The notes under the pieces are model-generated. The model was not told where the DNA came from. It saw nothing but the letters and a program-made list of their open reading frames with translations, and ran no database searches. Source: Planctopirus limnophila DSM 3776 (GTDB lineage Bacteria; Planctomycetota; Planctomycetia; Planctomycetales; Planctomycetaceae). Taken from it: a stretch of DNA of 32,000 nt. Location of the stretch: assembly GCF_000092105.1 (NCBI RefSeq), contig NC_014148.1:5340001-5372000 (forward strand), written 5' to 3'. Position 1 is the stretch's first letter, and each line of letters opens with the position of its first letter. The translations under genes and the position numbers were made by a program. This document shows positions 1 to 18,984 of this stretch, one piece after another.

Positions 1-396
1 CATCACTTCCAGAAGATCCGCATATGGGATGTAGCTACAGGAGTCTGAAAGCATATAGACGCGCAGCACTCTGTCCTTGTTGGGAAAATTCTGGATCAGT
101 TGGCTGGGCTCAAGGCAACCCGGCTTCGAACTATCTCCTGTTCGATCGTAATAGAGAGTTAGTCGTTCGATGCGAGACCCTGACAGTTGTTGAATGGGGC
201 TCCGCCATGCCTTGCTGTCGATCAATGGCCAGTCCACATCACCATTGATCGAGCTGAACGACCATTGCTTGAGATACTCTCTGGTCATCCGGTAGCGGCC
301 GTAGGAATCGATGACGGAATAGCTGAACGACAACAGCAGGAGACAGGCAAGCGATGCCAGAGTAATCCATATCCATCGTTTCCGATTTCGTGACAT
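1..396 (-). CDS. Single-pass membrane-anchored protein, partner-family paralog P4. The first 132 codons are present and the 3' end runs off the window edge.
   Basis: My own reverse-strand translation from the ATG at 396 gives MSRNRKRWIWITLASLACLLLLSFSYSVIDSYGRYRMTREYLKQW..., a basic N-terminus followed by a hydrophobic helix. The frame is open to position 1. The ORF is absent from the supplied track because it has no stop in the window. The last residues, SYIPYADLLEVM, match NLPYADIVEVLGWP in 1503..2165. Confidence 0.6.
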   Translation of the reverse strand, partial: MSRNRKRWIWITLASLACLLLLSFSYSVIDSYGRYRMTREYLKQWSFSSINGDVDWPLIDSKAWRSPIQQLSGSRIERLTLYYDRTGDSSKPGCLEPSQLIQNFPNKDRVLRVYMLSDSCSYIPYADLLEVM

Positions 397-406
397 CGCA
401 CACCTG
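251..406. repeat. Copy A of a 156-bp direct repeat covering the leader plus the first ~47 codons of the P4 gene
   Basis: Manual alignment of 251..406 with 1225..1380 shows only about 6-8 mismatches over 156 bp. Weaker similarity continues for about 30 bp further upstream of each start codon. Confidence 0.85.
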
Positions 407-588
407 CCTTTTTGAAAGTAAAGAATCCATCAAGGTAGGACTTCTTCCGTTTCCACAATATCAAGAATTCGTCCAGACCACTCGGGCACATCGGGCGTCA
501 TGGCCAGCGCGGGGGAGACCGATCCATTCGGTTGGGAGGGGCAGTCGGCCCGGGGACGCGGCAATACTCCGCGTTCAATAAACAAGGC

Positions 589-1200
589 TCACATTGACAA
601 AGGATCTTTTCGCTTCTTCGCGATAGTTCCAAGTTCTTGCCAAAGCAGCTCGACATACTTTTTAAGATTACGGCCATGCCTTTCGTTTATCTGTGCCTGT
701 TCAATCGAAAACAAAATAGAAATCACGCGTTCAAACTCCTCGCCAGGAACATTTTGCAAACATCCGTCGCTTTCGATCGTGACCTTGTTGTGCGGCCATT
801 TGGTCAGATGGAAAAAGACGGCGGGGATCTCGGACTGTTCGACAGATCCAGACAACACAGTGTGAGTCACGCCATTTTTCAGAGGGAAGCTGTCGATGAT
901 TGGCAGAACCCGTACCACCCGTTCAATCCCCGTGTAGGGCAACTCCGGTTCGACGAAGAAATCCACTTCGGTTGGATTGGTGTCGAACCATGCCACGAAT
1001 TGTAAGGGAAGTTGCTGCCGCAGTGCGGCTGGCAGATAGCTCCCCTGTTTAGTGGTGACATGTAAACCATTTTGGCGAGACGTGTGAATGTATCTCCATA
1101 GGACAGCCCGTTCATACGTTTGCTTGACGATCAAGACAAGTGCCACCAGAAACAGTCCTGTCACCACGTACCGCATGATATGATCACGGGAAGTCGTCAT
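589..1200 (-). CDS. Hypothetical single-pass membrane-anchored protein (divergent partner-family paralog P3)
   Basis: 203-aa ORF. The N-terminus MTTSRDHIMRYVVTGLFLVALVLIVKQ is a charged stretch followed by a TM helix. Size and topology match 1503..2165 and 3391..4083. Only a weak WP-centred motif is shared (HLTKWPHNKV). Its ATG overlaps the stop of the 1197..1370 ORF (ATGA). Confidence 0.55.
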   Translation of the reverse strand: MTTSRDHIMRYVVTGLFLVALVLIVKQTYERAVLWRYIHTSRQNGLHVTTKQGSYLPAALRQQLPLQFVAWFDTNPTEVDFFVEPELPYTGIERVVRVLPIIDSFPLKNGVTHTVLSGSVEQSEIPAVFFHLTKWPHNKVTIESDGCLQNVPGEEFERVISILFSIEQAQINERHGRNLKKYVELLWQELGTIAKKRKDPLSM

Positions 1201-1370
1201 GGCGAGTCCTCAGTTTTAGTTCGCGAGCTGAACGACCATTGCTTGAGATACTCTCTGGTCATTCGGTAGCGGCCGTAGGAATCAATGACGGAATAGCAGA
1301 ACGACAACAGCAGGAGACAGGCAAGCGATGCCAGAGTGATCCATATCCATCGTTTCCGATTCCCTGACAT
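1197..1370 (-). pseudogene. 5' gene fragment: truncated duplicate of the P4 N-terminus (57 codons), coupled to the downstream P3 gene
   Basis: MSGNRKRWIWITLASLACLLLLSFCYSVIDSYGRYRMTREYLKQWSFSS is near-identical to the first 47 aa of the 1..396 gene. It then diverges and stops after 10 more codons. I chose the ATG at 1370 by homology with the ATG at 396. The track start at 1400 adds 10 unsupported codons. Confidence 0.45.
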
Positions 1371-1380
1371 CGCACACCTG
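1225..1380. repeat. Copy B of the 156-bp direct repeat
   Basis: Manual alignment with 251..406 (see copy A). Confidence 0.85.
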
Positions 1381-1502
1381 TGTTTTCTTGAATAAAGCAA
1401 TGGCTCAAGGCAAAAGTCTTTTGATCTGCACAGTATTTAGAATCCATTAAGAAGCTTGGATAATCTTGTAAATCGACAAGCTGCCTGCGATTGTCCTCTC
1501 GG

Positions 1503-2165
1503 TTAGAACTCAGTTCTCGCTGGGGGAGAGTTTAATTCGATGTATCTTCTCACCTCTCGATGTGCTTCGGCTAAGGAGTCGTTAGAGGCTTTTGAATTCA
1601 TGACATTCAGCAGGCGCTCCCTGAGGCCGGGGAAATGTTCGCGGGAAAGGTTCTCTCCTGGGAAAAAAAGTGCATTGCACCGGAATGATTCGAGATTGGG
1701 CCAACCCAATACCTCCACGATGTCGGCGTAGGGCAGATTGCCGGTCGGAAACGCGATCTCCACATGCGTCACAAGCGACTTTTCCGGGAAGTTGTGAATC
1801 GAATGACTGGGCTGTTGATACCCCGGAAATGCATAGCTGCTTGTCAAACTTGATTGCGATGGCGAAATATCTGCATACGAGATTAATAGTTCGTCACACA
1901 TACGAGTATCACCCAAGATCGCCAGCGTGGTATCCTGGAACTGGCCGATCCGTGTCCTTTTCTGGGGTAACAACTTGCGCGCATCGTAAATTAAACAGAT
2001 GTGGGGATCCGTCGACTGGTTGGTGGCGCAATGCCGCGCCACACGCAGACGGGCGAAAGTCTCGCGAACAGTCACCCACCCGATAATGACCAGTGTCAAC
2101 ACGAGGATCGTCGCGACTGTGAGGAGAATTCTAGTTTTCCGACTGAGGCGTTTAGATCCAAGCAT
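1503..2165 (-). CDS. Single-pass membrane-anchored protein, partner-family paralog P2, immediately downstream of the orphan module
   Basis: I used the internal ATG at 2165 (MLGSKRLSRKTRILLTVATILVLTLVIIGWV: basic stretch plus TM helix), because the track start at 2249 overlaps the upstream gene end at 2194. The C-terminal motif NLPYADIVEVLGWPNLESF is shared with HPPYRDMAELLTWPGLKNF in 3391..4083 and with the 1..396 fragment. Confidence 0.65.
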   Translation of the reverse strand: MLGSKRLSRKTRILLTVATILVLTLVIIGWVTVRETFARLRVARHCATNQSTDPHICLIYDARKLLPQKRTRIGQFQDTTLAILGDTRMCDELLISYADISPSQSSLTSSYAFPGYQQPSHSIHNFPEKSLVTHVEIAFPTGNLPYADIVEVLGWPNLESFRCNALFFPGENLSREHFPGLRERLLNVMNSKASNDSLAEAHREVRRYIELNSPPARTEF

Positions 2166-2193
2166 GGTCGGTAGGTTCCTAGCTAGATGTATC

Positions 2194-3303
2194 TCAATCG
2201 GGGATAATTGTGGTGTTTTTCTCCACGACAGCGTCCAAGGCCCGACCATTCCAGAGTGGTAATGCTATTGGAGCGGAGATTCGAGGTGAATCCACCCGCT
2301 CGGGCTCCGCGAAAAAGTACACGCCCGACGGATTCTTGGCCACACGAGCATGCCATCCCCAGTGGACAACCTCAAGTGACACCCAGATGCTATCAGCGCC
2401 ATCAGGTTGATACATTAAGTGAGTTGTGAATTGTTCATTCAAGGCAGAGAGATCAAGGGTGATACCACTGATCAGGAGTCCGGGCGAATCGGTAATTGTC
2501 AGGTTCCCGCAGTCGTTGTCATTTAGATGAAGTGATTTGTCTTGAAAATTCCATGCATTCGGAGTCTCCGGTTTTCGATCGAGAACAAACAGTCCTCCGG
2601 AATGCGTTCGTGTTGTTGTTAGTCGTGTGACACCAGAAAAGCTTTGTTGCGTTGTCGTCGATCGATCGAATCGTGTTTTTTGTAGGAACTGGAATGTTCC
2701 CGCCTGCCCGGCAGCGGTTTCACAAGACGCTGCGATAGTGATCCCTTTGGAGTTCTTGCCTAAAGTTACTTCGACATTGGTAAGTGTAATCTTCGGATTG
2801 TCTGTCGTTGAATTCGCGGTGATAACAACGTCGGGCGCTTCTACCGTGATCGAGGCGGATGAATTGTGCGTTCTGTCAGCAATTGTGACCTCGGCAGTCA
2901 ACCGTCCATTCACGACTTTTCGGATCCAGCATGGCGAGATCGCCGCTGTTTGAAAATCTGAGTCAAAAAAGAGATGAACCACAGCTACTGTGTCAACAAC
3001 ATTATAACTCGAATTATGCGGGTGTTGAGTATTTGTCGGATTATAGGTGATTTTGTAATCCCGTACGAATGCACTAGGCAGATCCCATTCATTGGTAAAC
3101 TCGACTTCGGGAGTCACCCGGCATTCGAGTTTGACGCGTTTGCCCACGACGGTCGAGAAGGAACCACCTGTGACATCCTGGTCGTTAGCGAAGATCTGGA
3201 CTTTGTAGACTTTGATTTTCTTTTCGTCGGAGGACTGGCCGCAGGTGGCGGAGAGAGTGTGTTCGCCGGGAGTGGTCCACTTGACGCGGAGCTTGATGGC
3301 CAC
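2194..3303 (-). CDS. Orphan copy of the beta-rich C-terminal module of the 860-aa fusion protein, lacking the glycosyltransferase and linker
   Basis: The 369-aa ORF aligns over its whole length with roughly aa 486-860 of 4086..6668. The first ~72 aa are about 80% identical (AIKLRVKWTTPGEHTLSATCGQSS...KVYKVQIFAN.QDVTGGS..TVVG....LECRVTPE.EFTNEW). The remainder is about 35-40% identical by eye (KGITI.A.C.T, F.FLQ...FDR, LMY.PDG.DSIWVSL....WGW). The start is a GTG at 3303. Homology to the large gene breaks just upstream, near 3311. Confidence 0.7.
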   Translation of the reverse strand: MAIKLRVKWTTPGEHTLSATCGQSSDEKKIKVYKVQIFANDQDVTGGSFSTVVGKRVKLECRVTPEVEFTNEWDLPSAFVRDYKITYNPTNTQHPHNSSYNVVDTVAVVHLFFDSDFQTAAISPCWIRKVVNGRLTAEVTIADRTHNSSASITVEAPDVVITANSTTDNPKITLTNVEVTLGKNSKGITIAASCETAAGQAGTFQFLQKTRFDRSTTTQQSFSGVTRLTTTRTHSGGLFVLDRKPETPNAWNFQDKSLHLNDNDCGNLTITDSPGLLISGITLDLSALNEQFTTHLMYQPDGADSIWVSLEVVHWGWHARVAKNPSGVYFFAEPERVDSPRISAPIALPLWNGRALDAVVEKNTTIIPD

Positions 3304-3390
3304 GATGTGGCCTTCGATTATTTAATGAGTGGATTTCAACACGGCTTCGCCTCCTCCTATTTAAGAGTACACAGCCGACTTATTCATTGA

Positions 3391-4083
3391 TTATTTTTCT
3401 CCTTCGAGAGCCGAATGCTTTGCAAGAAATGAGCGAAGTTCCGAACGAGCTTGCTCTGCCTTGGTTGCGTCCGATTCGTCAATCAAAGTCAGTAAGAGAT
3501 TTCTCAATACCAAGAAGTCGGGTTCGGATAGTTTAATCCTTGGGATTGAAGGCGCATGCAATTCGAAATTCTTAAGTCCAGGCCATGTCAACAACTCTGC
3601 CATATCTCGATAGGGAGGGTGACATGCCATAGATTCTATATGGACAGTCTTGACCTTTGATTTGGCCGGATAACCCCCGACGATACGGCTGACGGTATCG
3701 TAACCTGGCAATCTGACCAACGCTGGGCACGGTCCTGGTAGGATCAGTGTGGGATCATAGTTGAGCACAAGTTCTTGAACACAATGATTTGAAAAATCTT
3801 CTCGACTGGCCCGCAAGCCCACACGTTCGAGCAACCTCAGATGGAACGGCGTTGTCGTCATCTGTAATTGGGAACCATATCGACCACCAATCAGATGGGA
3901 TTCGAGTTGATGGGAGTCGCTCAGGAATTGATCGGCCCTAGCCGCAACAAATGAAGGCTCTAACGTTTGCCAGATGAAATAGCCAGTAACGGTACTTCCA
4001 AGCAAAAAGATGGTGGCAAGGGTCGCGAAAAGTGATGTTTTGCGGAGAAATCTTCTTTGTCGAGTTCCGGTTTGGCTGGACAT
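3391..4083 (-). CDS. Single-pass membrane-anchored protein, partner-family paralog P1, immediately downstream of the fusion gene
   Basis: The ATG at 4083 lies 2 nt after the TAA of the upstream gene (4086-4088). The product starts MSSQTGTRQRRFLRKTSLFATLATIFLLGSTVTGYFIW, a basic stretch plus TM helix. The track start at 4278 would overlap the upstream gene by about 190 nt. It shares the PY.D..E.L.WP.L.NF motif with P2. Confidence 0.7.
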   Translation of the reverse strand: MSSQTGTRQRRFLRKTSLFATLATIFLLGSTVTGYFIWQTLEPSFVAARADQFLSDSHQLESHLIGGRYGSQLQMTTTPFHLRLLERVGLRASREDFSNHCVQELVLNYDPTLILPGPCPALVRLPGYDTVSRIVGGYPAKSKVKTVHIESMACHPPYRDMAELLTWPGLKNFELHAPSIPRIKLSEPDFLVLRNLLLTLIDESDATKAEQARSELRSFLAKHSALEGEK

Positions 4084-4085
4084 AA

Positions 4086-6668
4086 TTATCTCGATGTTGT
4101 GACTGTGCTTCGTTCCAACGGTACGTCCAATGCTCGCATTGACCAAATTGGTAAGTCCACTGAATCTTCGACATTGATTGACTTGATGACGGGATTTCCG
4201 ATGATGGCGAGTGAAAATGCCGGAACCCCTGAGGCCATTGCCGACCAGCCCCATGTGATGGTCTTGAGGGAAACCCAAATGCTATCCTCGCCATCGGGGC
4301 GATACATTAGACGAAGATCGAATGTTTCATCCGCAACGGATGCTGAGATAGCGGTTCTTAATGTCGTGATCTCGGGTGAATCGGTCATGGTGATCCCTCC
4401 TGCATCGATGTTGTTGAGATGCAAGGATCGATTCTGGAAATGCCAGGCGTCCTGGATTTCATCTTTCCGATCCAACACCCGCTCGGTCGTTCGCGTCCTC
4501 TCCGTCGAATCTCTGATTTGAGTTGCAAACTCTTGCCGACGTGTCACAGTTCGATCAAACGTAACTCTTTGCAGAAATCGAAATTCGCCGGCTCCGTCAG
4601 AACCCGTTGCACATAATGCCGAGACAGTGATACCTTTCGAGATTTTACCAAACTTCAGAACATTTTCGTCAACAAAAACTGGAGGTACGTCAGTAGTCGT
4701 TTGCGGGACGATGTTAACAATCGGCGCGCTGATTTCTGGTTTGGCACTCGCCGATTTACTCCGACCAGCAATAGTTACCATTACGCTGATTTCACCTCGA
4801 AATAGCGGCTTAATCCAATACAGTCGGATCGCGGGCAAGCAGGTCTCATTTTTTTCCTGAAACGTCTCGACAACACCGCTTGTATTCACGGATGTGTAGA
4901 GCCTGCCAAACCGATCTTGTTCACCAGTTGGTTTGTATAATATGCTGTATTTCTTGACGTAAATACCTGGAATTACCCACTCGTTCGTGAATTCCATCTT
5001 GGGGGTCACGCGGCATTCCAGTGCGATGGGTCTGCCGACGACTGTCGCGACCGATCCACCAGTCACATCCTGGCTATTGGCGAAGATCTGGACTTTATAG
5101 ACTTTGACCGTGGTCGTGGCGGAGGACTGGCCGCAGGTGGCGGAGAGGGTGTGTTCGCCTGGGGTGATCCATTGGACGCGGAGTTTGATGGCGACGATGT
5201 GGCCTGCGGCGTTCTTTTCCGATGATAGAGGGATGAATTCGCCGCCGGGGATGTTGATGGAGAGACCGTCCAGACAGGTGCCGGTGATGGTGATGTCGTC
5301 TTCATCGCCCACGAAGCAGGTTTCGGGGGCGGAGATGCCGCTGACAGCACACTGGCAGGGTGCGGGAGACGGTTCCGGGGATGGTTCCGGGGATGGTTCT
5401 GGGCTGGGCCAGGGGCTGGGTTCAGAGCCGGTTGCTTCGCTGGTGGGGAGGGTCATGGCCAGGGCCATGAGTTGGGGTGGATTTGATTCGTGGCCGGGCC
5501 AGTCAAGCTGGAAGGTGTGGGCATAGTCGAGTTCATCCCGCAGGCGGCGGCTTTGAACCAGCGTACGCTCTGCCTGGAGACTGGCGAGGTGCTCGTGGAA
5601 GAGATCGAGGGCAGCACGCCAGAGGGGAGGGAGGTGATCGGTGGATGCGGGTGAAGGGAGGAATACACCCTCACCCCGGCCCTCTCCCGGCAGACCGGGC
5701 GAGGGAGTAAGAAGGGGTTCTCCCGGCAGGTCGGGCGCGGGAGCAAGAAGCTGTTCGAGTGTGAGGGGGGTGTTTCTGGCGAGCCACCGCTGGAGATGGT
5801 GGGGGGAGAAGTGTTTGGCCGCCAGGCGCAGTTTGTTGTGGAGGACGTGGGGAGCGGGGACTTCATAATGGTCGAAGGCCCGCTGGAAACGGTGGGCAAC
5901 GCGGGAGAGGACATCCAGCTTGAGGCCATAGCCCAGACTCCAGGCCTTGAGTCCGAAGTCGATATCTTCGACGCCCCAGACCTTCATCCCCGTATCGAAG
6001 CCACCCAGTGCGAAGTAGGTTTCCCGAGAGACGGCCAGGACACAGCCAATGAGAGCGGGCTGATGATAGAGGCGGGTTTCCTCGTCGAGCTGCAGATTGG
6101 ACAGCGGGAGCCAGCGGCAGGAAAGGTCGGCAAGATCGAGGCCATAGCCCAGTCCCGTGCGGCCGGGGATCACAGTGAAGGTCGATTCATCCAGCGCGGG
6201 GAGGGCGGGGGTGAGAAGATCGCGGCCCTGAGATGCCTCGACACCGGCCACCAGCCGCTCCAGAGCTCCAGGTTCGGGCAAGACGTGGGCATCGAGGAAG
6301 ACCAGTACGCCTCCCCGCGCTAACTCGGCAGCGCGATGCTTGGCTGGGGAAGCCCCCTGGCGGGTTTCGAAGCGTTCGACCCGGAGAGGGAGTTCCGCCG
6401 AGTTCGGGAAGTTGGCAAGAGCGGCGGCGATGGAGCCATCGGTCGAGGCGTCATCGACGACAATGATCTCGCATAAGGCGTCACCGGGATTCGCTCTCTC
6501 GCTGTTGGTATCGCCGGGGAACGCGGGACTGGAGAGGCTCGTGGCGAGCAGCGAAGTGCGGACGGCATGGAATGTTCGGCTCAACAGGTGGGCTTCATTG
6601 TGGGCGGCGATACAGATCGAGAAACGCATGGGGCAATTCCTGAGACGAAGGACATCATGGGGCCGCAA
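4086..6668 (-). CDS. Fusion protein: N-terminal GT-A glycosyltransferase (GT2/GT27-like), helical region, PSPE-repeat linker and a beta-rich C-terminal module
   Basis: 860-aa ORF.
- The N-terminus shows GT2 hallmarks: FSICIAAHNEA, IIVVDDASTDGS.
- It has a DxH motif (VFLDAH).
- WGVEDIDFGLKAWSLGYGLKLDVLSRVAHRF parallels the Gal/GalNAc-T motif WGGEN.E.S.R.W.CGG.L......SRV.H.F of ppGalNAc-transferases.
- No signal peptide is visible.
- The linker reads EPSPWPSPEPSPEPSPEPSPAP.
- The C-terminal ~375 aa is paralogous to 2194..3303.
An alternative start at 6629 (MRFSICIA) is possible. Confidence 0.85.
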   Translation of the reverse strand: MRPHDVLRLRNCPMRFSICIAAHNEAHLLSRTFHAVRTSLLATSLSSPAFPGDTNSERANPGDALCEIIVVDDASTDGSIAAALANFPNSAELPLRVERFETRQGASPAKHRAAELARGGVLVFLDAHVLPEPGALERLVAGVEASQGRDLLTPALPALDESTFTVIPGRTGLGYGLDLADLSCRWLPLSNLQLDEETRLYHQPALIGCVLAVSRETYFALGGFDTGMKVWGVEDIDFGLKAWSLGYGLKLDVLSRVAHRFQRAFDHYEVPAPHVLHNKLRLAAKHFSPHHLQRWLARNTPLTLEQLLAPAPDLPGEPLLTPSPGLPGEGRGEGVFLPSPASTDHLPPLWRAALDLFHEHLASLQAERTLVQSRRLRDELDYAHTFQLDWPGHESNPPQLMALAMTLPTSEATGSEPSPWPSPEPSPEPSPEPSPAPCQCAVSGISAPETCFVGDEDDITITGTCLDGLSINIPGGEFIPLSSEKNAAGHIVAIKLRVQWITPGEHTLSATCGQSSATTTVKVYKVQIFANSQDVTGGSVATVVGRPIALECRVTPKMEFTNEWVIPGIYVKKYSILYKPTGEQDRFGRLYTSVNTSGVVETFQEKNETCLPAIRLYWIKPLFRGEISVMVTIAGRSKSASAKPEISAPIVNIVPQTTTDVPPVFVDENVLKFGKISKGITVSALCATGSDGAGEFRFLQRVTFDRTVTRRQEFATQIRDSTERTRTTERVLDRKDEIQDAWHFQNRSLHLNNIDAGGITMTDSPEITTLRTAISASVADETFDLRLMYRPDGEDSIWVSLKTITWGWSAMASGVPAFSLAIIGNPVIKSINVEDSVDLPIWSMRALDVPLERSTVTTSR
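5359..5430. repeat. Degenerate 12-nt tandem repeat encoding the (P-S-P-E)n linker
   Basis: The plus strand reads ggttccggggat ggttccggggat ggttctgggctg ggccaggggctg ggttcagagccg. On the minus strand this translates to SEPSPWPSPEPSPEPSPEPSP. Confidence 0.8.
5684..5755. repeat. Tandem 36-bp duplication inside the fusion gene (two 12-aa units)
   Basis: ctcccggcagaccgggcgagggagtaagaaggggtt (5684..5719) matches ctcccggcaggtcgggcgcgggagcaagaagctgtt (5720..5755) at 30 of 36 positions. The units encode LLTPSPGLPGEG and LLAPAPDLPGEP. Confidence 0.75.
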
Positions 6669-6858
6669 TGCGTCCCCTCATCTCAGCAGGAGTTGTTGCG
6701 CGGGGGTGAGGCAGCGAATGTCAAGAACCTGAAAGGAGGCTGGCGGTTGGCGTCTATAAAACGGCGAAGCTTACAGCGCACCAGATTCCGTTCGGATAGA
6801 GGGCTGCGCGAAAGTGGAGCAGCCCGCACGCCGCCATCGTCTTTCGCCAGGGAATGCC

Positions 6859-7878
6859 ATGCCGCTGATTGTTGATCCCCCGCCAATAGAACCTTTGTTT
6901 TTGTCACCAGGTGATGTCTGGCGGCCTGGTGATATCTGGCCGCCTGTATTGGCTGGTGACAATTCACTGGCGAATGTCGCCGTCGTGACGTGCCACTTCA
7001 ACCCTTGTGCTTACCGGGCGCCGGTGCGGAATCTCCAGCGGTTCCTGCAGCGGATGGAACAGGATGCACTGCCTGTCTGGACGATTGAGCTGGTCGCCAG
7101 TGGCGAAGCGGAAGCTCCCCCTGGCCAACGCGTGCGTCAGGTTCGCTCGCAGAGTGTGCTCTGGCATAAGGAACGGCTGTTGAACCGCCTCATCGAAGAG
7201 TTGCCTCCCTCGATCGAGAAGGTGTTCTGGGTTGATGCTGATTTGTTATTCGACGATTCGACCTGGCTGATGCGAGGAGCAGCAGCGCTGGACGAGTTTC
7301 CGGTGATTCAACCGTTCCGCGAAGCGATGCACCTGGCCTGTGACGCCGGTGAGTTGGAGGCCAATACAACCTCACATGAAACCAAGGCGATGGTGAGCAT
7401 CGCGCATGCGCGAAGGTCGCACCCTGCGCGATCCGAGGACTTCGGCTGGGCACATCCAGGTTTTGCGTGGGGTGCTCGTCGTGAGATCCTCGCTCGGCAT
7501 GGGCTCTACGACCGGCATCCTTTAGGGAGCAACGACACTCTGATGGTGCTGGCGATGACCGGTTCGTGGGGGCATCCCCTTGTGGCCCAATTTCCCTCTG
7601 GGATGCGCCGTGATTATCTGAAGTGGGCCGAACCATTTTATGACGATGTGAGGGGACGCATCGGTGATATCTCCGGCATTGTAAGGCATCTCTGGCATGG
7701 CTCGCTTCGAAAGAGAGCCTACGCAGTGCGGGAACAGATCCTTCGCGAGCATAACTTCGATCCCGCCGCAGAACTCGTACAAAACATCGACGAATGCTGG
7801 GAATGGACGACTCCTGACAGTCCCCTCGCAGTGGCCGTGAAGACCTACTTTCAAGAACGCCGGGAGGATCAGCGATGA
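6859..7878 (+). CDS. Putative GT-A-fold (nucleotide-diphospho-sugar transferase-like) glycosyltransferase
   Basis: The ORF is 6814..7878 in the track. I favour the ATG at 6859, which has AGGGA 5 nt upstream; the GTG at 6814 is possible. It contains VAVVTCHFNPCAYRAP near the N-terminus and a DxD-like motif, VFWVDADLLFDD. The fold assignment rests on motifs only. Confidence 0.6.
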   Translation: MPLIVDPPPIEPLFLSPGDVWRPGDIWPPVLAGDNSLANVAVVTCHFNPCAYRAPVRNLQRFLQRMEQDALPVWTIELVASGEAEAPPGQRVRQVRSQSVLWHKERLLNRLIEELPPSIEKVFWVDADLLFDDSTWLMRGAAALDEFPVIQPFREAMHLACDAGELEANTTSHETKAMVSIAHARRSHPARSEDFGWAHPGFAWGARREILARHGLYDRHPLGSNDTLMVLAMTGSWGHPLVAQFPSGMRRDYLKWAEPFYDDVRGRIGDISGIVRHLWHGSLRKRAYAVREQILREHNFDPAAELVQNIDECWEWTTPDSPLAVAVKTYFQERREDQR

Positions 7879-8810
7879 GTATTTTCTGCGGCTGGATCAG
7901 CCGTCATCCCCACATTTTGTACCACACGCCCTTGTCAGAGCGGCAGGCGTCGCTCTTGCCGAAGGAAAGAATCACCCATTTCATCAAACAAGCATGGTTG
8001 ACGACACTTGAAGACGCCGCAAGGCAAAACGAGCAACTGACAACCTGGCGGCCTGGCGACGCGATCATCCACTGCTGCAACGAGCAATCGCTGCACGGGG
8101 CACTCTGGTCGGCTGGCATCCCTTCGTGCTACCTGCCCCACAATGCCTTTCTTGACGAGGAACTGTTCCATATTGTTCCGGAAGCCAACATCGAGTTCGA
8201 CGCGGTTTATAACGCCCGTTTCGCGCCATTCAAGCGGCATGTTTTAGCACGGAGTATCCCACGTTTGCTGTTGTTGGGAACAATCGTGGCGGAGGGGGAT
8301 GACGCCGCTTACGCCGCTCGTGTCAAGCAGGAACTGTCGCATGCAGTCTTTTCTGAAGATCGCTTTGGTCGGTGGTTGAACGAGCGGCAAGTTGCCCGGG
8401 CCGTTTCGAGTGCAGCAGTGGGGTTGTGTCTGTCGCAGGTCGAAGGGGCGATGTACGCGGCTGTGGAGTATCTGCTATGCGGCCGCCCGATCGTCTCGAC
8501 AGCGAATCAAGGCGGACGAAACGAATGGCTGCACGCTGACTTCTGCCGGATCGTCGCGACCGATCCAGACAGCATCGCCCGTGCGACGCTCGAACTGGCA
8601 AAGGAGAAGATCCCCCCGCAGCAGATTCGCGAACAGACACTGCGCCAGATGACGCATCATCGCCGCACTTTCGGAGAACTCGGCCAGATGATTTACGACC
8701 GCGAACAGACCGGCCGCGACTTTTTGCGAGACTTCTATAGTACCTTCCATCACAAACTCGGTCGCTGGATGTCAGACGAGGATTTTGAACAGGAGGTATC
8801 GACATTGTAA
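7875..8810 (+). CDS. Putative GT-B-fold glycosyltransferase (GT1/GT4-like C-terminal domain)
   Basis: 311-aa ORF whose ATG overlaps the upstream stop (ATGA at 7875-7878). EGAMYAAVEYLLCGRPIVSTANQGGRNEWL resembles the E-x7-E / G.P.v....GG motif of retaining GT-B enzymes. Confidence 0.6.
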   Translation: MSIFCGWISRHPHILYHTPLSERQASLLPKERITHFIKQAWLTTLEDAARQNEQLTTWRPGDAIIHCCNEQSLHGALWSAGIPSCYLPHNAFLDEELFHIVPEANIEFDAVYNARFAPFKRHVLARSIPRLLLLGTIVAEGDDAAYAARVKQELSHAVFSEDRFGRWLNERQVARAVSSAAVGLCLSQVEGAMYAAVEYLLCGRPIVSTANQGGRNEWLHADFCRIVATDPDSIARATLELAKEKIPPQQIREQTLRQMTHHRRTFGELGQMIYDREQTGRDFLRDFYSTFHHKLGRWMSDEDFEQEVSTL

Positions 8811-8874
8811 GGCCGATTCAGCGACCTGAGATCAGCCGGCGGAATTCTCTCTGCGATTGTTCAGGACGCAAAGT

Positions 8875-9069
8875 TCAGCAACGTTGATTGGCGATAAGCT
8901 TCCAGTATTCGTCTTCAACGACAAAATCATCGCGTGCTGATGCGAGCATAGAAATTGATGGTTTGTACGGATGGCACGCAGATGCTGTCCCCGAACGAAC
9001 CAGGCGAACTAACTCTGTTCGCTGGTCGTCCTCGAAAACCACTTCAATATTCTGATTCGACTGTGCCAT
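8875..9069 (-). pseudogene. Truncated paralog (N-terminal ~60 aa) of the small protein at 9727..10059
   Basis: This 64-aa ORF shares EVVFEDD/EIVFNPD and ...ARDDFVVEDEYWKLIA with 9727..10059. The nucleotide block 8891..8948 matches 9929..9986 at roughly 88%. The ORF stops 4 codons after the shared block and so lacks the C-terminal helical half. Confidence 0.45.
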
Positions 9070-9167: not shown

Positions 9168-9740
9168 CTAGATGATTTCATCAGATTCGCAAAGCACCTC
9201 GATCAGTAGTTCATTCAGTTGAAGTTGAACGGCTTTCTGTTCGACAACCGTGATTTCGCTTTCCTTCAAACCCTGATAGAGCTTGCGAAGGTCACGCCGG
9301 CTTTTGTGGCTCCCTTTGGAGATCCAGACAAGTTTTGCCAGTGTGAAATCGGGACGACTCACAATCGGTAACGACAGATCGGTAATCATCTCGAACATGA
9401 TAGATCGGTTCAGTTCGCCTTCAATGAGTTCGCGAGGGTAAAGGTCGAGTTTCACAATGGCATGGCTATCGAGTAGCTGGAATGGTTTATTGTGCGAAAT
9501 CGCGTCACGAATTGATTTTGGAGAGTGTTGAAACGAAGTGGATGCTAATTGGTTGATGAAGTCTTCACATGAGTGGATGAGTTGCTGCCGATCGAGCACC
9601 AGATCGACATCTTGTGTCATCCTTGGATCGAGGTAGGCTGCCGAAATGATTCCGCCTGTCAGGTGAAAACGAATATTCAGATGGTTCAGTAACTGGGAGA
9701 TTTTCAAAAGTGTGTCGCGGTATTCTTCAGGAGCGAACAC
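9168..9740 (-). CDS. Minimal nucleotidyltransferase-fold protein (pol-beta superfamily-like), possible toxin-antitoxin or defence component
   Basis: HLTGGIISAAYLDPRMTQDVDLVLD fits the hG[GS]-x9-13-Dh[DE]h NTase motif, with a spacing of 13. I chose the GTG at 9740, which overlaps the upstream gene end by 14 nt. The track start at 9848 would overlap 9727..10059 by about 120 nt and adds a low-complexity S/T/K-rich stretch. Confidence 0.55.
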   Translation of the reverse strand: MFAPEEYRDTLLKISQLLNHLNIRFHLTGGIISAAYLDPRMTQDVDLVLDRQQLIHSCEDFINQLASTSFQHSPKSIRDAISHNKPFQLLDSHAIVKLDLYPRELIEGELNRSIMFEMITDLSLPIVSRPDFTLAKLVWISKGSHKSRRDLRKLYQGLKESEITVVEQKAVQLQLNELLIEVLCESDEII

Positions 9741-10059
9741 GAGAGAGATTCCTTTCGATGATTTCGCGGAGGATCGGGTTGTCGCCGTAGTGCTGGAGGG
9801 CGACTTCCCATTTGAGTTCTTCGGTGGTGAGGTCAGGCCTTTCAGCAAGCAGATTTCTGGCGGCCATCTGTCGGGCCCAGATCAGCATGCGTATGGAGCG
9901 TTCGACTTTCTCAGCCGGTGTCATGCGGGCGATGAGCTTCCAGTATTCGTCTTCAACAACAAAATCATCGTTGGCTGATGCGAACACAGAGTTTGAATGC
10001 TGCTGGCTTTTGCCAGATGCATCGGGATTGAAAACAATCTCTGGACTGAGATCGGTCAT
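9727..10059 (-). CDS. Small hypothetical protein (110 aa) upstream of and overlapping the NTase-fold gene
   Basis: Clean ORF with an ATG start and a predicted helical C-terminal half (MTPAEKVERSIRMLIWARQMAARNLLAERPDLTTEELKWEVALQHYG). Its N-terminal part is duplicated at 8875..9069. I recognise no family. Confidence 0.55.
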   Translation of the reverse strand: MTDLSPEIVFNPDASGKSQQHSNSVFASANDDFVVEDEYWKLIARMTPAEKVERSIRMLIWARQMAARNLLAERPDLTTEELKWEVALQHYGDNPILREIIERNLSRVRS

Positions 10060-13589: not shown

Positions 13590-13666
13590 ATGAAGATCGG
13601 GCCGGTAAAGACAACTCTCTCGCTTTGACAGGAACTCAAAGTAAGAGCGATTATTCTCGTTTGGCG
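13590..13666. repeat. Direct repeat DR2, overlapping the last five codons and stop of gspE
   Basis: See DR1. It also contains the hairpin 13615..13647 (ctctctcgctttga / tcaaagtaagag), located just after the gspE stop. Confidence 0.8.
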
Positions 13667-15324
13667 AGACGATCAACTTCTTCGAGAGTGGTTGTGCCGT
13701 CGGCGACGCGCAAAAGTCCTGATTCTCGTAATGTGACCATACCGGCAGTGAGCGCGTAAGAGCGGATTTCTGTCGCAGCGGCCCGGCGAATACATAGCCG
13801 GCCAATTTCAGCATCGGTCAGCAGCAGTTCAAAGATTGCCTGACGACCCGTGTACCCCGTATTGCGACATTCCCGGCAACTTCCCGGTTCGTAGATGAAT
13901 TCACAATCCGGATCGGGAAAATCGTCCGGAAGCATTCCGGGCTTCACCTGGACAGGCACCTTGCAATGTTTGCAAAGTCGGCGGACCAGTCGCTGAGCCA
14001 GCACACCCGCCACCGTACTCGAAACGAGATAAGGTTCCACACCCATATCGACCAGTCGTGCAAAAGCCGACGGGGCATCGTTGGTGTGCAACGTACTGAA
14101 GACCAGGTGACCCGTGAGCGAAGCCTGAATGGCGGCTTCAGCCGTCTCGCTATCGCGAATTTCCCCGATGAGAATCACATCCGGGTCATGACGTAGAATA
14201 CTGCGCAAACCGGCGGCAAACGTCAGGCCGATTTTCGAATGGACCTGAATCTGGCTGATGCCCGGCATCTGGTATTCAACAGGATCTTCGACCGTGATGA
14301 TTTTGACCGACGGGTCTTTGATCTCGTGGAGGGCACTGTACAGCGTCGACGTTTTACCACTACCAGTCGGGCCAGTGACCAGCACAATTCCGTGGGGGAG
14401 TGTGATCAACTGGCGGAAGGGGACATCGACCATGGGCGGCATGCCCACGTTTTTCAGATTAAAGACCATACGGCCTTTATCCAACAGACGCATCACGACC
14501 CCTTCGCCATACAGCATCGGGATAATCGATACGCGTACGTCGATCTCGCGGCCCTTAATCTTGAGCTTGATGCGGCCGTCCTGTGGCAATCGTTTCTCAG
14601 CAATATTCAGCCGGGACATGATCTTGAGCCGGGTGACAATGGCCTGCTGGAACTGATTGATCGAAGGAGGCAATGGCTGAACACGCAGCAAACCATCGAC
14701 GCGGAAGCGGATGATCAGGCCATTTTCCTGTGGCTCGATATGCACATCACTGGCCTGCATTTCGAGAGCTTCGACCAGCAACTCGTTGACCAGCTTGATG
14801 ACCGAGGCCGCTTCAGCGGCATCTTCGAGATCACCAGTCTGTTCGAGTGGTTCACTGAGAAGTTCGACACCATCAGCAGCCCTTTGGGCCACCAGTTGGT
14901 TGAGTGTATCGCCCCCGACACCGAGATGATCCTTAATCATCTCAATCACGTCGAGCTTGCGCGCCAGAACTGGCTCGAGATGAAAGCCACTGACGCTGGA
15001 AAGCTCTTCGAGCGCTTCGAGGTTGAACGGGTCTGATGTGGCGACAATGACACTGCCGTTGTTTCGACCAATGGGCAGCAGAGAGTGCCGGAAGACAGCG
15101 TTCGTGGGGAACTGCATCAGCAGATCGCGATCAATTGCTTCGTGCTTGATATCGACGAAGCGCATCCCCAGTTCCTGGGCAATGGTCTGCAGAACTTGAC
15201 CTTCGTCGGCCCAGCCTTTGTCGATCACCAGTCGATCAACGCGCGCACCGCTGGGGACACCCAGTTCTTTGAGCTGATCAGGAGTAATGACTCCTTTACG
15301 GACCAGTGTCGCCCCGATGTTCAT
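13651..15324 (-). CDS. gspE: Type II secretion / type IV pilus assembly ATPase (GspE/PilB family)
   Basis: 557 aa.
- N-terminal T2SSE_N-like domain: [15 protein letters not shown]...[14 protein letters not shown]
- Walker A: [12 protein letters not shown]
- Walker B / Asp box: [14 protein letters not shown]
- His box: [13 protein letters not shown]
- Tetracysteine: CKHCK...[12 protein letters not shown]
Whether this is GspE or PilB cannot be settled from the sequence alone. Confidence 0.93.
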
Positions 15325-15483
15325 AATCTCATTTCAGTCGTATCGCAGGTTGGAAGCGCAGAGAGTTGGGCTCTGATCAGTCAGGAATACTTATACCTAT
15401 CATCATCTTCCCGATGGGACAGGGCTGTGAAAAGAGTTCTCCGCAGGATTCACAGGGTTTCTTGAAGCCCGCAGAAACATTCA

Positions 15484-18400
15484 TCAGCGGCCACCACGTC
15501 CTGAACCGCTCCCGCGACCACTGCCGCCAAAGCCTCCACTGCCAAATCCTCCACTCGGGCGACCACCACTACTATTGCTTCCGCCGCCGAAGCCACCAAA
15601 GCCACTGCTGCTACCACCACTCCCCATGCGTTCCCGCATCCGCTGCTCCATGATCCGACGGATGTCATCCTGATTGGGTTGCTGCTGTTCGGGCTGAGGT
15701 GGATTCTGATTGTTGTTATTCCCTGTCGAACTGGAACCACTGCGCGAAGGTCGGCTCCTCGATGAACCACTGACACTGACTTTAGGCATGAGCGATGAAA
15801 TCGACTGTGAAAGAATCGTGGGGTCAGCCTTATCAAGTGTGATGACACGAATCGTTTGCCGGGCGTCTTTAGCACGCTGATCGAGATCGAGAACCAGTTC
15901 CGAAACCTGTTGAAAGAGGGTGTCATTGGCCGAAACGATGAGATGACTGGTGCGGGTATCGACACCAATCGTCATTTCCGGCCCACGCTGGGCACCACGT
16001 CCCTGCTGACCACCTTGTTGCCCCATCAGCATGGCCAGCGGGTTGAAGTCTCCACCGCCGCGGCCACTTCGTCCACCACCTGGCATGGCCTGCGGTGATT
16101 CGAGCTTATCTTTAAAGACTTCGTTCACGATCGAGGCGACTTCTTCCACATCGGCATAGTTGACCGGGATCGAGCGAGGCAGGCGATCGCGGGCGTTTTG
16201 CGGAAGCTCTTCAGCATCGAGAATCTCCAGCATCTGCTCGATTTCTCGCACTTTATCGGCGGGGCCAGAGACAAACAGGGCATTGGCCCGGGTATCGGTA
16301 ATGATCCGCACTGGCTGCGACGCAGAACCCAGCGAATCCAGACCCGTCGCACTGAGCATCCCCCGGCTCATCGATGAAAACCCGCTGGTAAAGCCGCCGA
16401 ACATTCCACCAGAATCAGCCGCAGAGGAAGCGGTCACACTGCTTTGAGGGAAGAGCCTTTCGAGCATGGTGGCGGTTTCGGTGGCATCGGCTGAGCGGAG
16501 ATAAAAGATCGTCCAACGGGTACGGGCGGGAATGGTTTCGGAGAGTGCACTAAAGAGTTCTTCGAGTCGATCGAGTGCATTTGTATCGGGCGAAGTCATG
16601 ATGATTTCATCGCCATTCACAGTCATGGAAACGCCCGGTGACGCTTTCGTGGCTGGCTGGGAATTCGAGTCTTTAGCAGAGGGAATTTCAGCTGATAGCG
16701 CGGGCGTATTTTTGCTTTGCTGATTGCTGGCAGACTCTTCTTCGAGAACGACAGCCTCAGCTTCCTGCTGAGTAGCATCCTGCAGTGTGGAAGTGCGGGA
16801 AACGGTGAGTAAGCGATTTTGTGGGACTGTCGAAGCGATCTCGCGGGAAGGCTGAATCTGCTGTGTGACGGGGAGTTCCCGTGTGACGGGTGAACGCTCG
16901 ACTGGTGGACTTTCTGGAACGGACGTGGGTTCAATCCGGCGGGCACCAGGTGTCTTCAGTTCACGCACAGGGTTTCGAGCCGAAGGCACAACGACACGAA
17001 TGGGGCTTTCTTCAGAAGCGGCCCAGACCTTCTGCATCATCTGCATCACTTCTTCAGGATCGCGGCCACCCAAAGTGAGTGATCGAACCATGCCCTGGCC
17101 GGTGGCCCGTTTGGCTTGCCCAGTCCCATCTTCGCCCAGTTCTGAAAGAAGCGACTTCACCTGAGACAATTGCTCGGGGGTGCCACGAATCATCAGGCGA
17201 TTGCCATAAGCATCGGGTTCAATACTGGGGGCTTCACGGCCTTCGTTCGAGAAGAGCGAACGGAGTGTGTTCGAGGCAGCGACTGGATCAAGTTTCACAA
17301 GGTTAACCACCGCCACCGAAGACGAGGCATTACCCGCCAGTTGCTTCACCAGACGGTCAATTTCGCCATGCTCGTTTTCGTTGGCCTGAATGAAGATTTT
17401 CCCGTAGCGGGTATCTTCGCCCACTACGGTGCCGGGCATAAGTGTGCTGATGGTTTTCACCACCTGTGCCAGATCACTCGAGGTCACCTGATAGACCCGC
17501 AACGAGACAGGAGAATCTTCGGCCAGGGGGCGGCCATCAGCACCACGGTCCACATCAATCGACTTGATGAGATCTTCGACCGTGGGCAGTAACGTGGCAG
17601 GAGCAGCCACCAGAAGCGAGTTGGTCCGAGGATCGGCAGTGACCTGCAGTTTCGCGGCGAGACTGTTCGTGGTCGACGTCGTGCGGGGTGGCGGCTGTTG
17701 TTCACGAGGATCGCGACTGCGGTCATCCCGGCCGCGATCATCCCATCGGCTGCGATCGCTGGAAGAAGACGATGATGAAGTCGTTGTGGTGGCAGAGTTC
17801 GTGGGGAGGCCAAAGAGTCTGCGGACAGTTCGTTCCGCTTCCTGCGAAGAAATGTGCTTCAGGGCAATCGATTTGAAGGTCAGGTCGCGGTTGCCAGTGG
17901 CTCCATCGCTGGTAAGTAAGCGATAGATACGACGAAGATTCGAACCAATATCAGTGACGACCACCGAGTTGGTGTTTTTGAGAGCCGAGACTTTCCCCTG
18001 CGGGCCCACCAGTTCGCGAATTTCGTTAGCAGCCACTTCGGCATCGAGCCCGGAGAGGGGAATTACAACGGACATCAGTTCGTTTTTGCCCCGGTTATCG
18101 AGTTCTTCAGGAAGCACATCGGGAACCAGATTGGGTGGAATACCAGACGAGATGTTGGCCACCACAAGAAACTGATCGCGACGCACCAGCACAAAGCCCT
18201 TGGGGAGCAAATAGCCATTGAGGATGTCGAGAGCTTCGATCGGCGTGTAGCGACGACCGTCGAGATAGTTGAATGTGCCCGGCGGAATCTCTGTGAGATC
18301 AAGAGTAAGCCCGGCCTTCGTGGCGAACAACTGCAAGACATCGGCCCAGGGGGCATAACGAAAGCTGAATGAGAATGGCCGCTCGGGGTCGACAGCCGGT

Positions 18401-18984
18401 GAGATCGAGGCGGGCTGAGGATTGAAGCTGGCTTCGATCTTGGGAGCAATGACCGGCTTGGGCAGGGCATTGGGTGCTGCCGGCGTTGTGGGTGCTGTCG
18501 GAGTTGCTGCAGGAGCAGTGCCGGTTGCGGGCGTGGTCGATGGACCTGTTGGCGATTGTGATCCGGATGTCGTGGGTGCTCCAGATGCAGTAGGTGCTCC
18601 AGGGGTTGCAGCCGGTTTCGTGGCTTCAGCAGCGGGAGTTGAGGGTGCCGAAGAAGCAGCCTCAGTCCCCTGCGGTTCGAGCTTGCCTGGCTGCGTGGAC
18701 TCTGTGGAACTTTTCGGTTGATCGTCGCTGGTTTCGGTGACTGCTGTCCCTGTTGGAGCGGGACTGGCCGTTTCCTGAGCGAAAGCTGCCACTGACCATG
18801 GCAGGGCAGTGAGAGGAACGGCTCGACCGACATCATCGGCACTGGTTAGCAGCGCAGGAAGAAATGCCGTCAGCACACAGCCCGCAACCAGTCGGCAAGC
18901 CGCCATAAATCCGAGTGTCCCAAAAACTCCATAAGAGGTGATTGATGACTGCTCAGAAGATTTCAGGGAGCACTTCCCGTCCAT
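15484..18984 (-). CDS. GspD-like protein with N0 and multiple secretin N-domains, long low-complexity regions and no recognisable secretin beta-barrel
   Basis: N0-like segment: FSFSFRYAPWADVLQLFATKAGLTLDL...YTPIEALDILNGYLLPKGFVLV. Repeated N-domain signatures follow:
- VVVTDIGSNLRRIYRLL
- VTADPRTNSLLVAAPATLLPTVEDLIKSID
- IEPDAYGNRLMIRGTPEQLSQVKSLL
- IITDTRANALFVSGPADKVREIEQMLEILD
- IGVDTRTSHLIVSANDTLFQQVSELVLDLD
I favour the start at the ATG at 18984, which has AAGGA 6 nt upstream and precedes a hydrophobic signal-like segment, FMAACRLVAGCVLTAFLPALL. The track start is 19059. Confidence 0.8.
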   Translation of the reverse strand: MDGKCSLKSSEQSSITSYGVFGTLGFMAACRLVAGCVLTAFLPALLTSADDVGRAVPLTALPWSVAAFAQETASPAPTGTAVTETSDDQPKSSTESTQPGKLEPQGTEAASSAPSTPAAEATKPAATPGAPTASGAPTTSGSQSPTGPSTTPATGTAPAATPTAPTTPAAPNALPKPVIAPKIEASFNPQPASISPAVDPERPFSFSFRYAPWADVLQLFATKAGLTLDLTEIPPGTFNYLDGRRYTPIEALDILNGYLLPKGFVLVRRDQFLVVANISSGIPPNLVPDVLPEELDNRGKNELMSVVIPLSGLDAEVAANEIRELVGPQGKVSALKNTNSVVVTDIGSNLRRIYRLLTSDGATGNRDLTFKSIALKHISSQEAERTVRRLFGLPTNSATTTTSSSSSSSDRSRWDDRGRDDRSRDPREQQPPPRTTSTTNSLAAKLQVTADPRTNSLLVAAPATLLPTVEDLIKSIDVDRGADGRPLAEDSPVSLRVYQVTSSDLAQVVKTISTLMPGTVVGEDTRYGKIFIQANENEHGEIDRLVKQLAGNASSSVAVVNLVKLDPVAASNTLRSLFSNEGREAPSIEPDAYGNRLMIRGTPEQLSQVKSLLSELGEDGTGQAKRATGQGMVRSLTLGGRDPEEVMQMMQKVWAASEESPIRVVVPSARNPVRELKTPGARRIEPTSVPESPPVERSPVTRELPVTQQIQPSREIASTVPQNRLLTVSRTSTLQDATQQEAEAVVLEEESASNQQSKNTPALSAEIPSAKDSNSQPATKASPGVSMTVNGDEIIMTSPDTNALDRLEELFSALSETIPARTRWTIFYLRSADATETATMLERLFPQSSVTASSAADSGGMFGGFTSGFSSMSRGMLSATGLDSLGSASQPVRIITDTRANALFVSGPADKVREIEQMLEILDAEELPQNARDRLPRSIPVNYADVEEVASIVNEVFKDKLESPQAMPGGGRSGRGGGDFNPLAMLMGQQGGQQGRGAQRGPEMTIGVDTRTSHLIVSANDTLFQQVSELVLDLDQRAKDARQTIRVITLDKADPTILSQSISSLMPKVSVSGSSRSRPSRSGSSSTGNNNNQNPPQPEQQQPNQDDIRRIMEQRMRERMGSGGSSSGFGGFGGGSNSSGGRPSGGFGSGGFGGSGRGSGSGRGGR

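Follow-up and report, generated by a model that had tools for sequence, protein, structure and literature searches.

Analysis of a 32,000-nt stretch of the chromosome of the freshwater bacterium Planctopirus limnophila DSM 3776 (NC_014148.1, positions 5,340,001 to 5,372,000; termed the window, to which coordinates refer unless a contig is named) identified, at 1..6668, a conserved gene for a GT27-like glycosyltransferase (GT) with a polymorphic cassette array at its 3′ end. All genes of the array lie on the minus strand. Three elements are constant: the GT domain, a linker and the first immunoglobulin (Ig)-like domain, here called the handle. The rest of the C-terminal module (~280 residues) travels as a unit with the next gene, which encodes a single-pass membrane protein of one family (the P family). 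Different units are fused to the GT in different Planctopirus-type genomes, and 5′-truncated units, together with partners that have lost their module, accumulate downstream, with the breakpoints at the handle. Confidence in this genetic architecture is high: the array structure is robust and was cross-validated in three genomes. The cassette form has so far been seen only in Planctopirus-type genomes.

Organisation and proposed exchange of the cassettes

The open reading frames (ORFs) of the array had been listed in an original prediction made from the sequence alone, and all were found on the minus strand where it had placed them. The first in transcription order, at 4086..6668 (stop codon 4086-4088), is open for 860 aa from a TTG at 6668, as predicted, but its start is probably Met14 at 6629, because homologs align from that residue: 112 GT homologs align from fusion residue 14, and the homologs begin at MRFSICIAAHNE. 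Depending on the start, the fusion protein is 847-860 aa long and has three parts, a GT27-like domain, a linker and an all-beta, Ig-like C-terminal module; its locus tag, deduced from those of its neighbours, is presumably Plim_4179. The GT-A catalytic domain, which resembles polypeptide N-acetylgalactosaminyltransferases (ppGalNAc-transferases), was delimited at 5770..6629 by Pfam, PDB sequence search and motif alignment. It is followed at 5209..5769 by the Pro/Ser/Glu-rich constant linker and the first constant beta segment (CQCAVSGISAPETCFVGDEDDITITG...), and at 4927..5208 by handle copy 1, a GC-rich (~61%) stretch that encodes the conserved Ig-like domain (GHIVAIKLRVQWITPGEHTLSATCGQSS...KVYKVQIFAN...) and can be aligned to every other cassette. 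The variable part of this module, module A, is all-beta with Ig-like repeats and occupies 4089..4926. Its partner gene, P1 (Plim_4178, 3391..4083, 230 aa), starts 2 nt past the fusion stop.

A 69-nt spacer (3322..3390) separates P1 from an orphan cassette, whose 5′ end is formed by handle copy 2 (3035..3316), a local GC peak (57%). The orphan, module B (Plim_4177, 2194..3303), is a 369-aa open frame from a GTG, with no GT, linker or first constant segment. Its partner P2 follows at 1503..2165 (220 aa, with an N-terminal membrane helix and a P-family hidden Markov model (HMM) match at E=2e-68). Further downstream lie a shortened copy of the 5′ end of a P4-type gene (1224..1397), the lone partner P3 (589..1200, 203 aa, HMM E=2e-68), a 3′ remnant of a third module, C, of ~120 nt just upstream of P4 (430..550, recognised by comparison with contig L006, below), and the lone partner P4 (1..396, HMM E=2e-41), of which the window edge leaves the first 132 codons. 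What had been read as a 57-codon fragment between P2 and P3 is instead a 67-aa ORF (1197..1400) that contains a 93% copy of the P4 5′ end.

Differences in cassette content were evident on comparison with P. hydrillae, represented by contig13 (L006) and other contigs (L007, L009), and with a pond metagenome-assembled genome (MAG; L008). The repeated constant and handle sequences interrupt public assemblies, with L006, L007 and L009 each beginning at the equivalent of 5351 and having the linker/first constant beta segment part in common, and a further contig, L015, ending inside a handle. The cassette order in P. hydrillae was deduced from such contig ends. L006 matched window 5351..3044 at 93.6% identity, covering module A, P1, the spacer and the orphan handle, and homology ended there; at the orphan position the two species were 89% identical in the handle and ~40% identical at the nucleotide level beyond it. 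The constant-plus-handle stretch was 88.5% identical between the species, and the variable part of module A 96.6%. The orphan of P. hydrillae is module C, followed by a 240-aa partner orthologous to the P4 of the window (94% nt and 96% aa identity). Window 550..1 corresponds to L006 3047..3596 at 92.9%, and since module C ends at L006 3167, the window retains only its last ~120 nt upstream of P4. The orphan set thus differs between the species, with B and P2 in the window and C with a P4-type partner in P. hydrillae.

The MAG was ~90% identical to the window over 9000..4976, which includes the GT, linker, handle and both upstream genes. Its GT carries a different module, D, which is followed directly by an ortholog of P3 (window 1231..1051 against L008 11243..11423, 97.8% over 181 nt). 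Because their orthologs directly follow D in the MAG and C in L006, the lone P3 and P4 appear to be the cognates of modules present in relatives, D as a fusion and C as an orphan. A conserved GT with a variable module, variable orphan pairs and breakpoints at the handle had all been anticipated, and all are borne out by these comparisons.

Three further variants were found in P. hydrillae: C, and modules E and F on ~2-kb contigs, each with its own P gene. Beyond partner E, after 31 nt, comes a GT truncated so that it begins at about residue 198, an orphan that keeps far more of the constant part. Behind partner F lies a copy of the 3′ module remnant found ahead of the last partner in L006; the 203-aa partner of L006 has a module remnant before it. 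The L006 array ends ~130 nt before a tRNA-Ala(CGC) gene (L006 5009-5081), with ftsY and smpB beyond it; the window stops short of this position. The genes flanking the array are chromosomal housekeeping genes, and its location between a conserved GT gene and a tRNA gene is a typical variable-island position.

As predicted, the orphan is homologous to the C-terminal module only, with 46% identity to fusion residues 492-855 (E=1e-106), and the DNA homology begins abruptly at AGGCCACATCGT. Protein identity was 76% over the first 75 residues and 39% beyond, in close agreement with the ~80% and ~35-40% given earlier. The conserved handle itself stood, although as a direct repeat (D1, 3035-3316 against 4927-5208) of ~280 nt, returned by a repeat finder, instead of the ~220 nt first proposed; it is GC-rich. 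GC content falls from ~62% to ~48% at the 3′ end of the handle (step at 5000-5100), and the orphan handle is again a local peak. Neither this step nor the ~120-nt module remnant at ~430-550 was part of the original prediction. Between A and B, the synonymous substitution rate (dS) was 0.63 over codons 1-50 and saturated beyond them. As synonymous sites are conserved too, the handle appears to be homogenised at the DNA level, beyond protein constraint alone. The handle of module D was 85-91% identical (aa) to those of B and C, whereas its variable part most resembled those of E and F (34-35% identity, compared with 22-25% to the rest). These conflicting groupings, together with the GC step at the homology break, point to recombination at the handle.

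These data bear on the simplest alternative, that a two-gene unit of module tail and membrane protein was duplicated in tandem and then diverged and decayed, the orphans being leftovers with no role in switching and the handle being conserved merely by the structural constraint on an Ig domain. The orphan indeed has no clear start of its own, its GTG lying inside the handle and an in-frame TAA just upstream truncating it, and scars or remnants occur at 1224-1397 and 430-550; three read-set assemblies of P. limnophila, identical to the window, likewise show no switching. Structural constraint alone would not, however, explain the conserved synonymous sites in the handle, and the disagreeing handle and variable-part groupings, the compositional boundary at the breakpoint and the different modules fused to ~90% identical GT genes speak against simple duplication. 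The 369-codon orphan frame is also intact, with a ratio of non-synonymous to synonymous rates (dN/dS) of 0.22. We therefore consider plain duplication very improbable.

Other dN/dS values were similarly low. Between P. limnophila and P. hydrillae they were 0.06 for the variable part of module A and 0.22 for P1; lone P4 against the 240-aa gene after module C gave 0.07, and the GT domain, window against MAG, 0.19. With the 0.22 overall for A against B, module A, P1, lone P4 and orphan B all look functional. The spacer at 3322-3390, which ends in the in-frame TAA that truncates the orphan, does not differ between P. limnophila and P. hydrillae (100% identity), whereas the coding DNA to either side is ~94% identical. 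It has an AGGAGG, then a mini-ORF of 6 codons (GTG TTG AAA TCC ACT CAT TAA) that ends 14 nt before the orphan GTG, and may act in translational coupling or in the regulation of orphan expression. An Rfam scan of the window gave no match, and promoter and terminator scans returned counts at the chance-expected level. The stretch 1224-1397, a 93% direct repeat of 250-423 at the P4 5′ end, is 95% identical to L006 3185-3347 and covers P-family HMM positions 1-49; it is a recombination scar. The linker, which encodes Pro/Gly/Glu-rich repeats, contains a 36-nt tandem duplication (D3, 5683-5754, copies 83% identical) and, further along, a PEPSPEPSPEPSP run.

The glycosyltransferase, module and partner families

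The N-terminal part of the fusion matched Pfam Glycos_transf_2 (E=4.5e-17) and Glyco_transf_7C (E=1.2e-8), and all 16 significant PDB sequence matches were polypeptide GalNAc-transferases of family GT27, the best being GalNAc-T1 (1xhb, E=1.3e-25). Aligned to 1xhb, the FLDAH (DxH) of the GT fell on FLDAH, the Gal/GalNAc-T motif WGVEDIDFGLKAW on WGGENLEISFRIW, and the downstream metal-binding His (SRVAHRF) on SHVGHVF. For the GT core, at least 112 relatives were found at 32-47% identity; those with names come mainly from Planctomycetes, with some from actinomycetes. Those of at least 550 aa (45/112) have diverse C-terminal extensions; domains fused to the core elsewhere include PKD, IPT/TIG, Big_9/cadherin-like, lectin-like 3-keto-disaccharide-hydrolase and NifU_N. 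The module of the present locus was found in only 7-8 of the 112. One relative, P0038, combines an N-terminal PLOD-type (collagen) glycosyltransferase domain, a GT27-like core and a C-terminal NifU_N domain; NifU_N, an odd companion for a glycosyltransferase, recurs in several further relatives.

All six modules (A-F) are mutually homologous, with 22-39% aa identity between the variable part of A and those of B-F (25% for A against D). No significant match to the module was found in Pfam, NCBIfam, PHROG or PADLOC. An AlphaFold2 model was all-beta (predicted local distance difference test score (pLDDT) 65, predicted TM-score 0.59); Foldseek against PDB and BFVD returned only tandem Ig-domain proteins, at low TM-score, and a PDB search with a deeper module profile recognised only a Big_2-like segment. 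No toxin or enzyme fold was found by Pfam, NCBIfam, PDB sequence search or Foldseek with these moderate-confidence models. A word-indexed search with the module gave four relatives only, all from Planctopirus. An exhaustive profile search gave 1,918 representatives at E<=1e-3, a count that takes in partial matches and possibly some generic Ig-like segments, and 460 at E<=1e-10. Among the best 150 of the 1,918, the match lay nearly always at the extreme C-terminus, in proteins of 190-1,449 aa. In 72 module-family proteins the N-terminal parts carried Ig-like/beta-sandwich domains typical of surface proteins (Glucodextran_B, TSP3_bac, Big_13, He_PIG, Calx-beta, cadherin-like), with a GT in two or three and a toxin-system domain in none of those scanned. 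By a conservative heuristic, at least 35 of 124 had a signal-peptide-like N-terminus. These data suggest a large, uncharacterised family of C-terminal domains borne mostly on secreted Ig-repeat proteins.

The P proteins were 13-28% identical to each other, with P..K and WP as common motifs. A single hydrophobic helix lies at each N-terminus, in most cases after basic residues; the transmembrane (TM) segment lies at residues 19-37 in P1 and 13-31 in P2, with an N-flank charge of +5 in both. By the positive-inside rule, most partners would place a domain of ~180 residues outside the cytoplasm. The AlphaFold2 model of P1 showed a long N-terminal helix followed by an alpha/beta domain (pLDDT 65), for which Foldseek gave no match at E<0.1. 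No relative of the P proteins was found in Pfam, NCBIfam, PHROG, PADLOC or PDB, and the PADLOC defence-system models matched none of the 8 proteins submitted. A leucine-rich-repeat-like look of the P domain was supported by no tool and is not claimed. The family was found in Planctopirus-type sequences only. In a profile scan of 16 loci, P-like ORFs occurred only beside modules or module remnants, each P gene lying after one, in keeping with the original prediction.

The company kept by the module family raises the possibility of surface or antigenic variation, in which the module would be displayed on the cell surface and vary to escape phages or grazers or to alter adhesion. The P protein would then be a cognate membrane anchor, export or assembly factor, comparable to the chaperone of a tail-fibre tip, and the orphans silent donors. 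The Ig-like repeats of the module, the many signal-peptide-bearing, adhesin-like proteins of Ig repeats in its family, and the joint variation of tip and downstream gene all suit such a role. Silent 5′-truncated copies with a common conserved handle follow the logic of pilS- or vls-type donor cassettes. Similarly, in phage Mu (S/U-S′/U′) and in R-type pyocin fibre/chaperone loci, a constant N-terminal part bears a variable C-terminal binding tip, with a cognate small gene downstream and alternative cassettes nearby. The present array differs from these in that its constant part is an enzyme, its repeats are direct where the phage cassettes are invertible segments, it has no recombinase, its partners are membrane-anchored, and it has no phage homology or prophage context. 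Module and P proteins had no PHROG match and no tblastn match in 50,697 phage records, and no relatives were found in viral contigs or plasmids. With cassettes in direct orientation, moreover, a simple crossover at the handle deletes and gives no reversible switch. The fusion lacks an export signal, its N-terminal half is a cytoplasmic-type nucleotide-sugar transferase, and lone partners are conserved without any module. Surface variation is thus quite improbable.

Known systems and functional readings

In polymorphic toxin loci, a constant 5′ body carries a variable tip that is exchanged with standalone cassettes, and the gene whose product neutralises the cognate toxin lies directly 3′, so that tip and small gene are transferred together and rows of small genes accumulate downstream (PMC3482391). 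Contact-dependent inhibition (CDI; cdiA-CT/cdiI) and Rhs (Rhs-CT/rhsI) loci resemble the array in the constant 5′ body, variable 3′ tip, short conserved recombination segment and cognate small gene 3′, and also in 5′-truncated tip/partner cassettes and lone partners downstream, a GC-rich body with GC-poorer tips, and strain-to-strain replacement of tips. Two features by which such systems are recognised were found here: close relatives are alike but for the C-terminal-most region, and standalone 5′-truncated cassettes with an adjacent small gene, in the order toxin then immunity gene, lie downstream (PMC3482391). Two others, an N-terminus of trafficking, presentation or secretion type or else linked secretion genes, and C-terminal toxin domains such as nucleases, deaminases, peptidases and pore-formers, mostly with unrelated folds (PMC3482391), were not. 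In place of a trafficking or presentation domain, the constant body here is a GT27-like glycosyltransferase, with neither a secretion signal nor secretion genes associated with it; every tip is an Ig-like module, homologous to the others and without a recognisable toxin fold, and the partners form one membrane-anchored family. Classification as a polymorphic toxin system was rejected because these two defining features are lacking, though the loci are genetically alike. The original prediction had compared the layout to CDI, Rhs and polymorphic-toxin loci while seeing no secretion signal, no toxin fold and homologous modules. Domain, fold and TM searches confirmed these reservations; the cassette logic was supported in the relatives, and identification as a toxin was not supported. 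A polymorphic-toxin-like layout is by itself no ground for a toxin annotation.

A true toxin/immunity (effector/immunity) system may still be envisaged, in which the GT-module protein would be exported by an unrecognised route and the module, or a GT directed by it, would harm neighbouring cells. Membrane-anchored P proteins would be cognate periplasmic immunity proteins, and orphan pairs and lone P genes a reserve and immunity repertoire. The constant 5′ body, exchanged 3′ tip and small gene directly 3′ fit the published definition (PMC3482391). Consistent with this, lone partners are kept intact under purifying selection (P4 dN/dS 0.07), the constant part is GC-rich and the tips GC-poor, and the array differs between species and adjoins a tRNA gene in P. 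hydrillae. An N-terminal anchor with the bulk of the protein outside would also resemble immunity proteins for periplasm-acting toxins. However, the fusion has no signal peptide or TM segment (maximum Kyte-Doolittle 19-residue mean 1.5), and no Rhs/YD, haemagglutinin-repeat, PAAR, LXG or WXG trafficking domain was found in it by Pfam and NCBIfam. The module has no toxin or enzyme fold; its six versions form one homologous family, not unrelated toxins, and the wider family of 1,918 mostly ends secreted Ig-repeat proteins, with a toxin-system domain in 0/72 scanned. The P family is confined to Planctopirus, and a constant GT would need no variable immunity partners. On balance a toxin/immunity system is unlikely.

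The closest solved relatives of the catalytic domain, the eukaryotic GT27 ppGalNAc-transferases, offer a different comparison. They have in common with the fusion the DxH, the Gal/GalNAc-T motif and the downstream His, as well as the order of catalytic domain, linker and C-terminal non-catalytic domain. GT27 enzymes transfer GalNAc from UDP-GalNAc to Ser/Thr of proteins, and their C-terminal domain steers substrate choice. There it is a ricin-type (beta-trefoil) lectin, whereas the predicted model here consists of Ig-like beta-sandwiches, and the C-terminal region of the fusion gave no Pfam match to Ricin_B. The eukaryotic enzymes also have type II membrane topology with a lumenal catalytic domain, whereas the fusion has no N-terminal hydrophobic segment, and they are fixed paralogs in animals, in contrast to the cassette-exchanged tail in a bacterial host.

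The reading we favour is that of a ppGalNAc-transferase-like enzyme with an exchangeable recognition domain and a cognate membrane partner, because of the GT27 homology, the family-wide occurrence of alternative binding-type C-terminal domains and the tight genetic coupling of module and partner. Cassettes would be exchanged by homologous recombination in the handle, as in CDI and Rhs loci. The module would be a binding or specificity domain, not an enzyme or toxin, and would form a predicted cognate pair with its partner; a cassette swap would then change the membrane-anchored partner, or the partner-defined site or substrate, that is engaged by a protein O-glycosyltransferase. Selection may favour diversity between strains with conservation within a type. 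Read as one statement, architecture and function fall just short of an even chance; the binding-pair and targeting function taken by itself is put forward tentatively, as a possibility somewhat below even.

Several observations weigh against this enzyme-and-partner reading. No switching within a population was seen among the P. limnophila read-set assemblies (L001-L003), and module D of the MAG is frameshifted, possibly through misassembly. The co-divergence of modules and partners was positive but not significant (Mantel r=0.47, p=0.083, n=6). The models of the module and P1 were each built from 4-5 sequences and are of moderate confidence (pLDDT ~65). A profile scan found no P-like gene beside distant GT-module fusions (L012, L016), so module-partner pairing is not general to the GT-module architecture. 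The topologies are also mismatched: the fusion, having no signal peptide or TM segment, looks cytoplasmic, whereas most partner domains are predicted to be outside and most module-family proteins look secreted. Finally, strong purifying selection on lone partners (P4 dN/dS 0.07) would suit an immunity-like role better than that of a substrate or anchor. The small genes that follow the L012 (148 aa) and L016 (179 aa) fusions were considered as a shared partner type and rejected, as they resemble neither each other nor the P family.

Adjacent genes with co-changing variable regions, one member being a membrane protein, are known from Proteus IdsD/IdsE and Dictyostelium TgrB1/TgrC1, and Tgr proteins use Ig-like (IPT/TIG) domains for recognition. 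To our knowledge, orphan cassette arrays are not a feature of either system; no sequence relationship to the present array was found, and no secretion system is linked to the array. A related possibility is a hitherto undescribed class of polymorphic recognition or effector system in Planctomycetes, in which the GT27-like protein O-glycosyltransferase would be re-targeted by exchanged Ig-like modules and the co-transferred membrane proteins would be cognate receptors or immunity factors, for glycosylation-based kin discrimination or conflict. Strains of one species would then differ in whom or what they glycosylate. We regard this as rather unlikely.

No description of Plim_4177 to Plim_4179, or of a cassette array on a glycosyltransferase, was found in the literature, nor was any prior description in that on bacterial GT27 in planctomycetes and P. 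limnophila glycosylation. The recombination architecture is known; the contents, a ppGalNAc-transferase-type constant part, homologous Ig-like tips and lineage-specific membrane partners, are new. If the favoured reading holds, the recombination logic of CDI and Rhs loci also diversifies the targeting domain of a protein glycosyltransferase. It would suggest that the C-terminal domains of bacterial relatives set specificity, like the lectin domain in animals, and would provide a genetically tractable context for these relatives of the animal mucin-type O-glycosylation enzymes. It would also give a first functional handle on the ~1,900-member C-terminal domain family and on the Planctopirus-specific membrane-protein family.

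Neighbouring genes and minor observations

Upstream of the fusion, synteny and Pfam identified two divergent conserved neighbours on the plus strand (6814..8810), which encode a 354-aa protein and a 311-aa GT1/GT4-like protein. The 354-aa gene recurs beside the GT in the MAG, in L015 and in Rubinisphaera italica, and the GT1-like gene (Glyco_trans_1_4, E=5e-7) near the GT in the MAG and L015. The 354-aa protein (6814-7878, +) matched no Pfam family but contains a WVDADLLF motif (DxD-like; DAD), and is probably an unclassified GT-A-type transferase. Around distant members of the GT family, further glycosyltransferases and sulfotransferases are frequent.

Near this glycosyltransferase cluster, an ORF at 9168-9848 (-) encodes an AbiEii-like nucleotidyltransferase (Pfam PF08843, E=1.2e-5; no PADLOC match). 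The 64-aa ORF beside it (8875-9069, -) had no family match, so no antitoxin partner is evident. At the matching position the MAG has a 190-aa ORF (L008 5651-6223). Some 7 kb from the array, at 13651-19059 (-), the gene for an ATPase of type II secretion/type IV pilus type (T2SSE + MshEN) adjoins that for a 1,191-aa secretin with five Secretin_N stretches; no link between these genes and the GT fusion was found.

In a metagenome contig (L013 2141-5213), paralogous lipoprotein genes follow a distant GT fusion, P0016. One product is 254 aa long, and another, of 428 aa, contains two copies of one domain; their sequences are unrelated to the P family. These lipoprotein genes are a possible analogue of the partner array.

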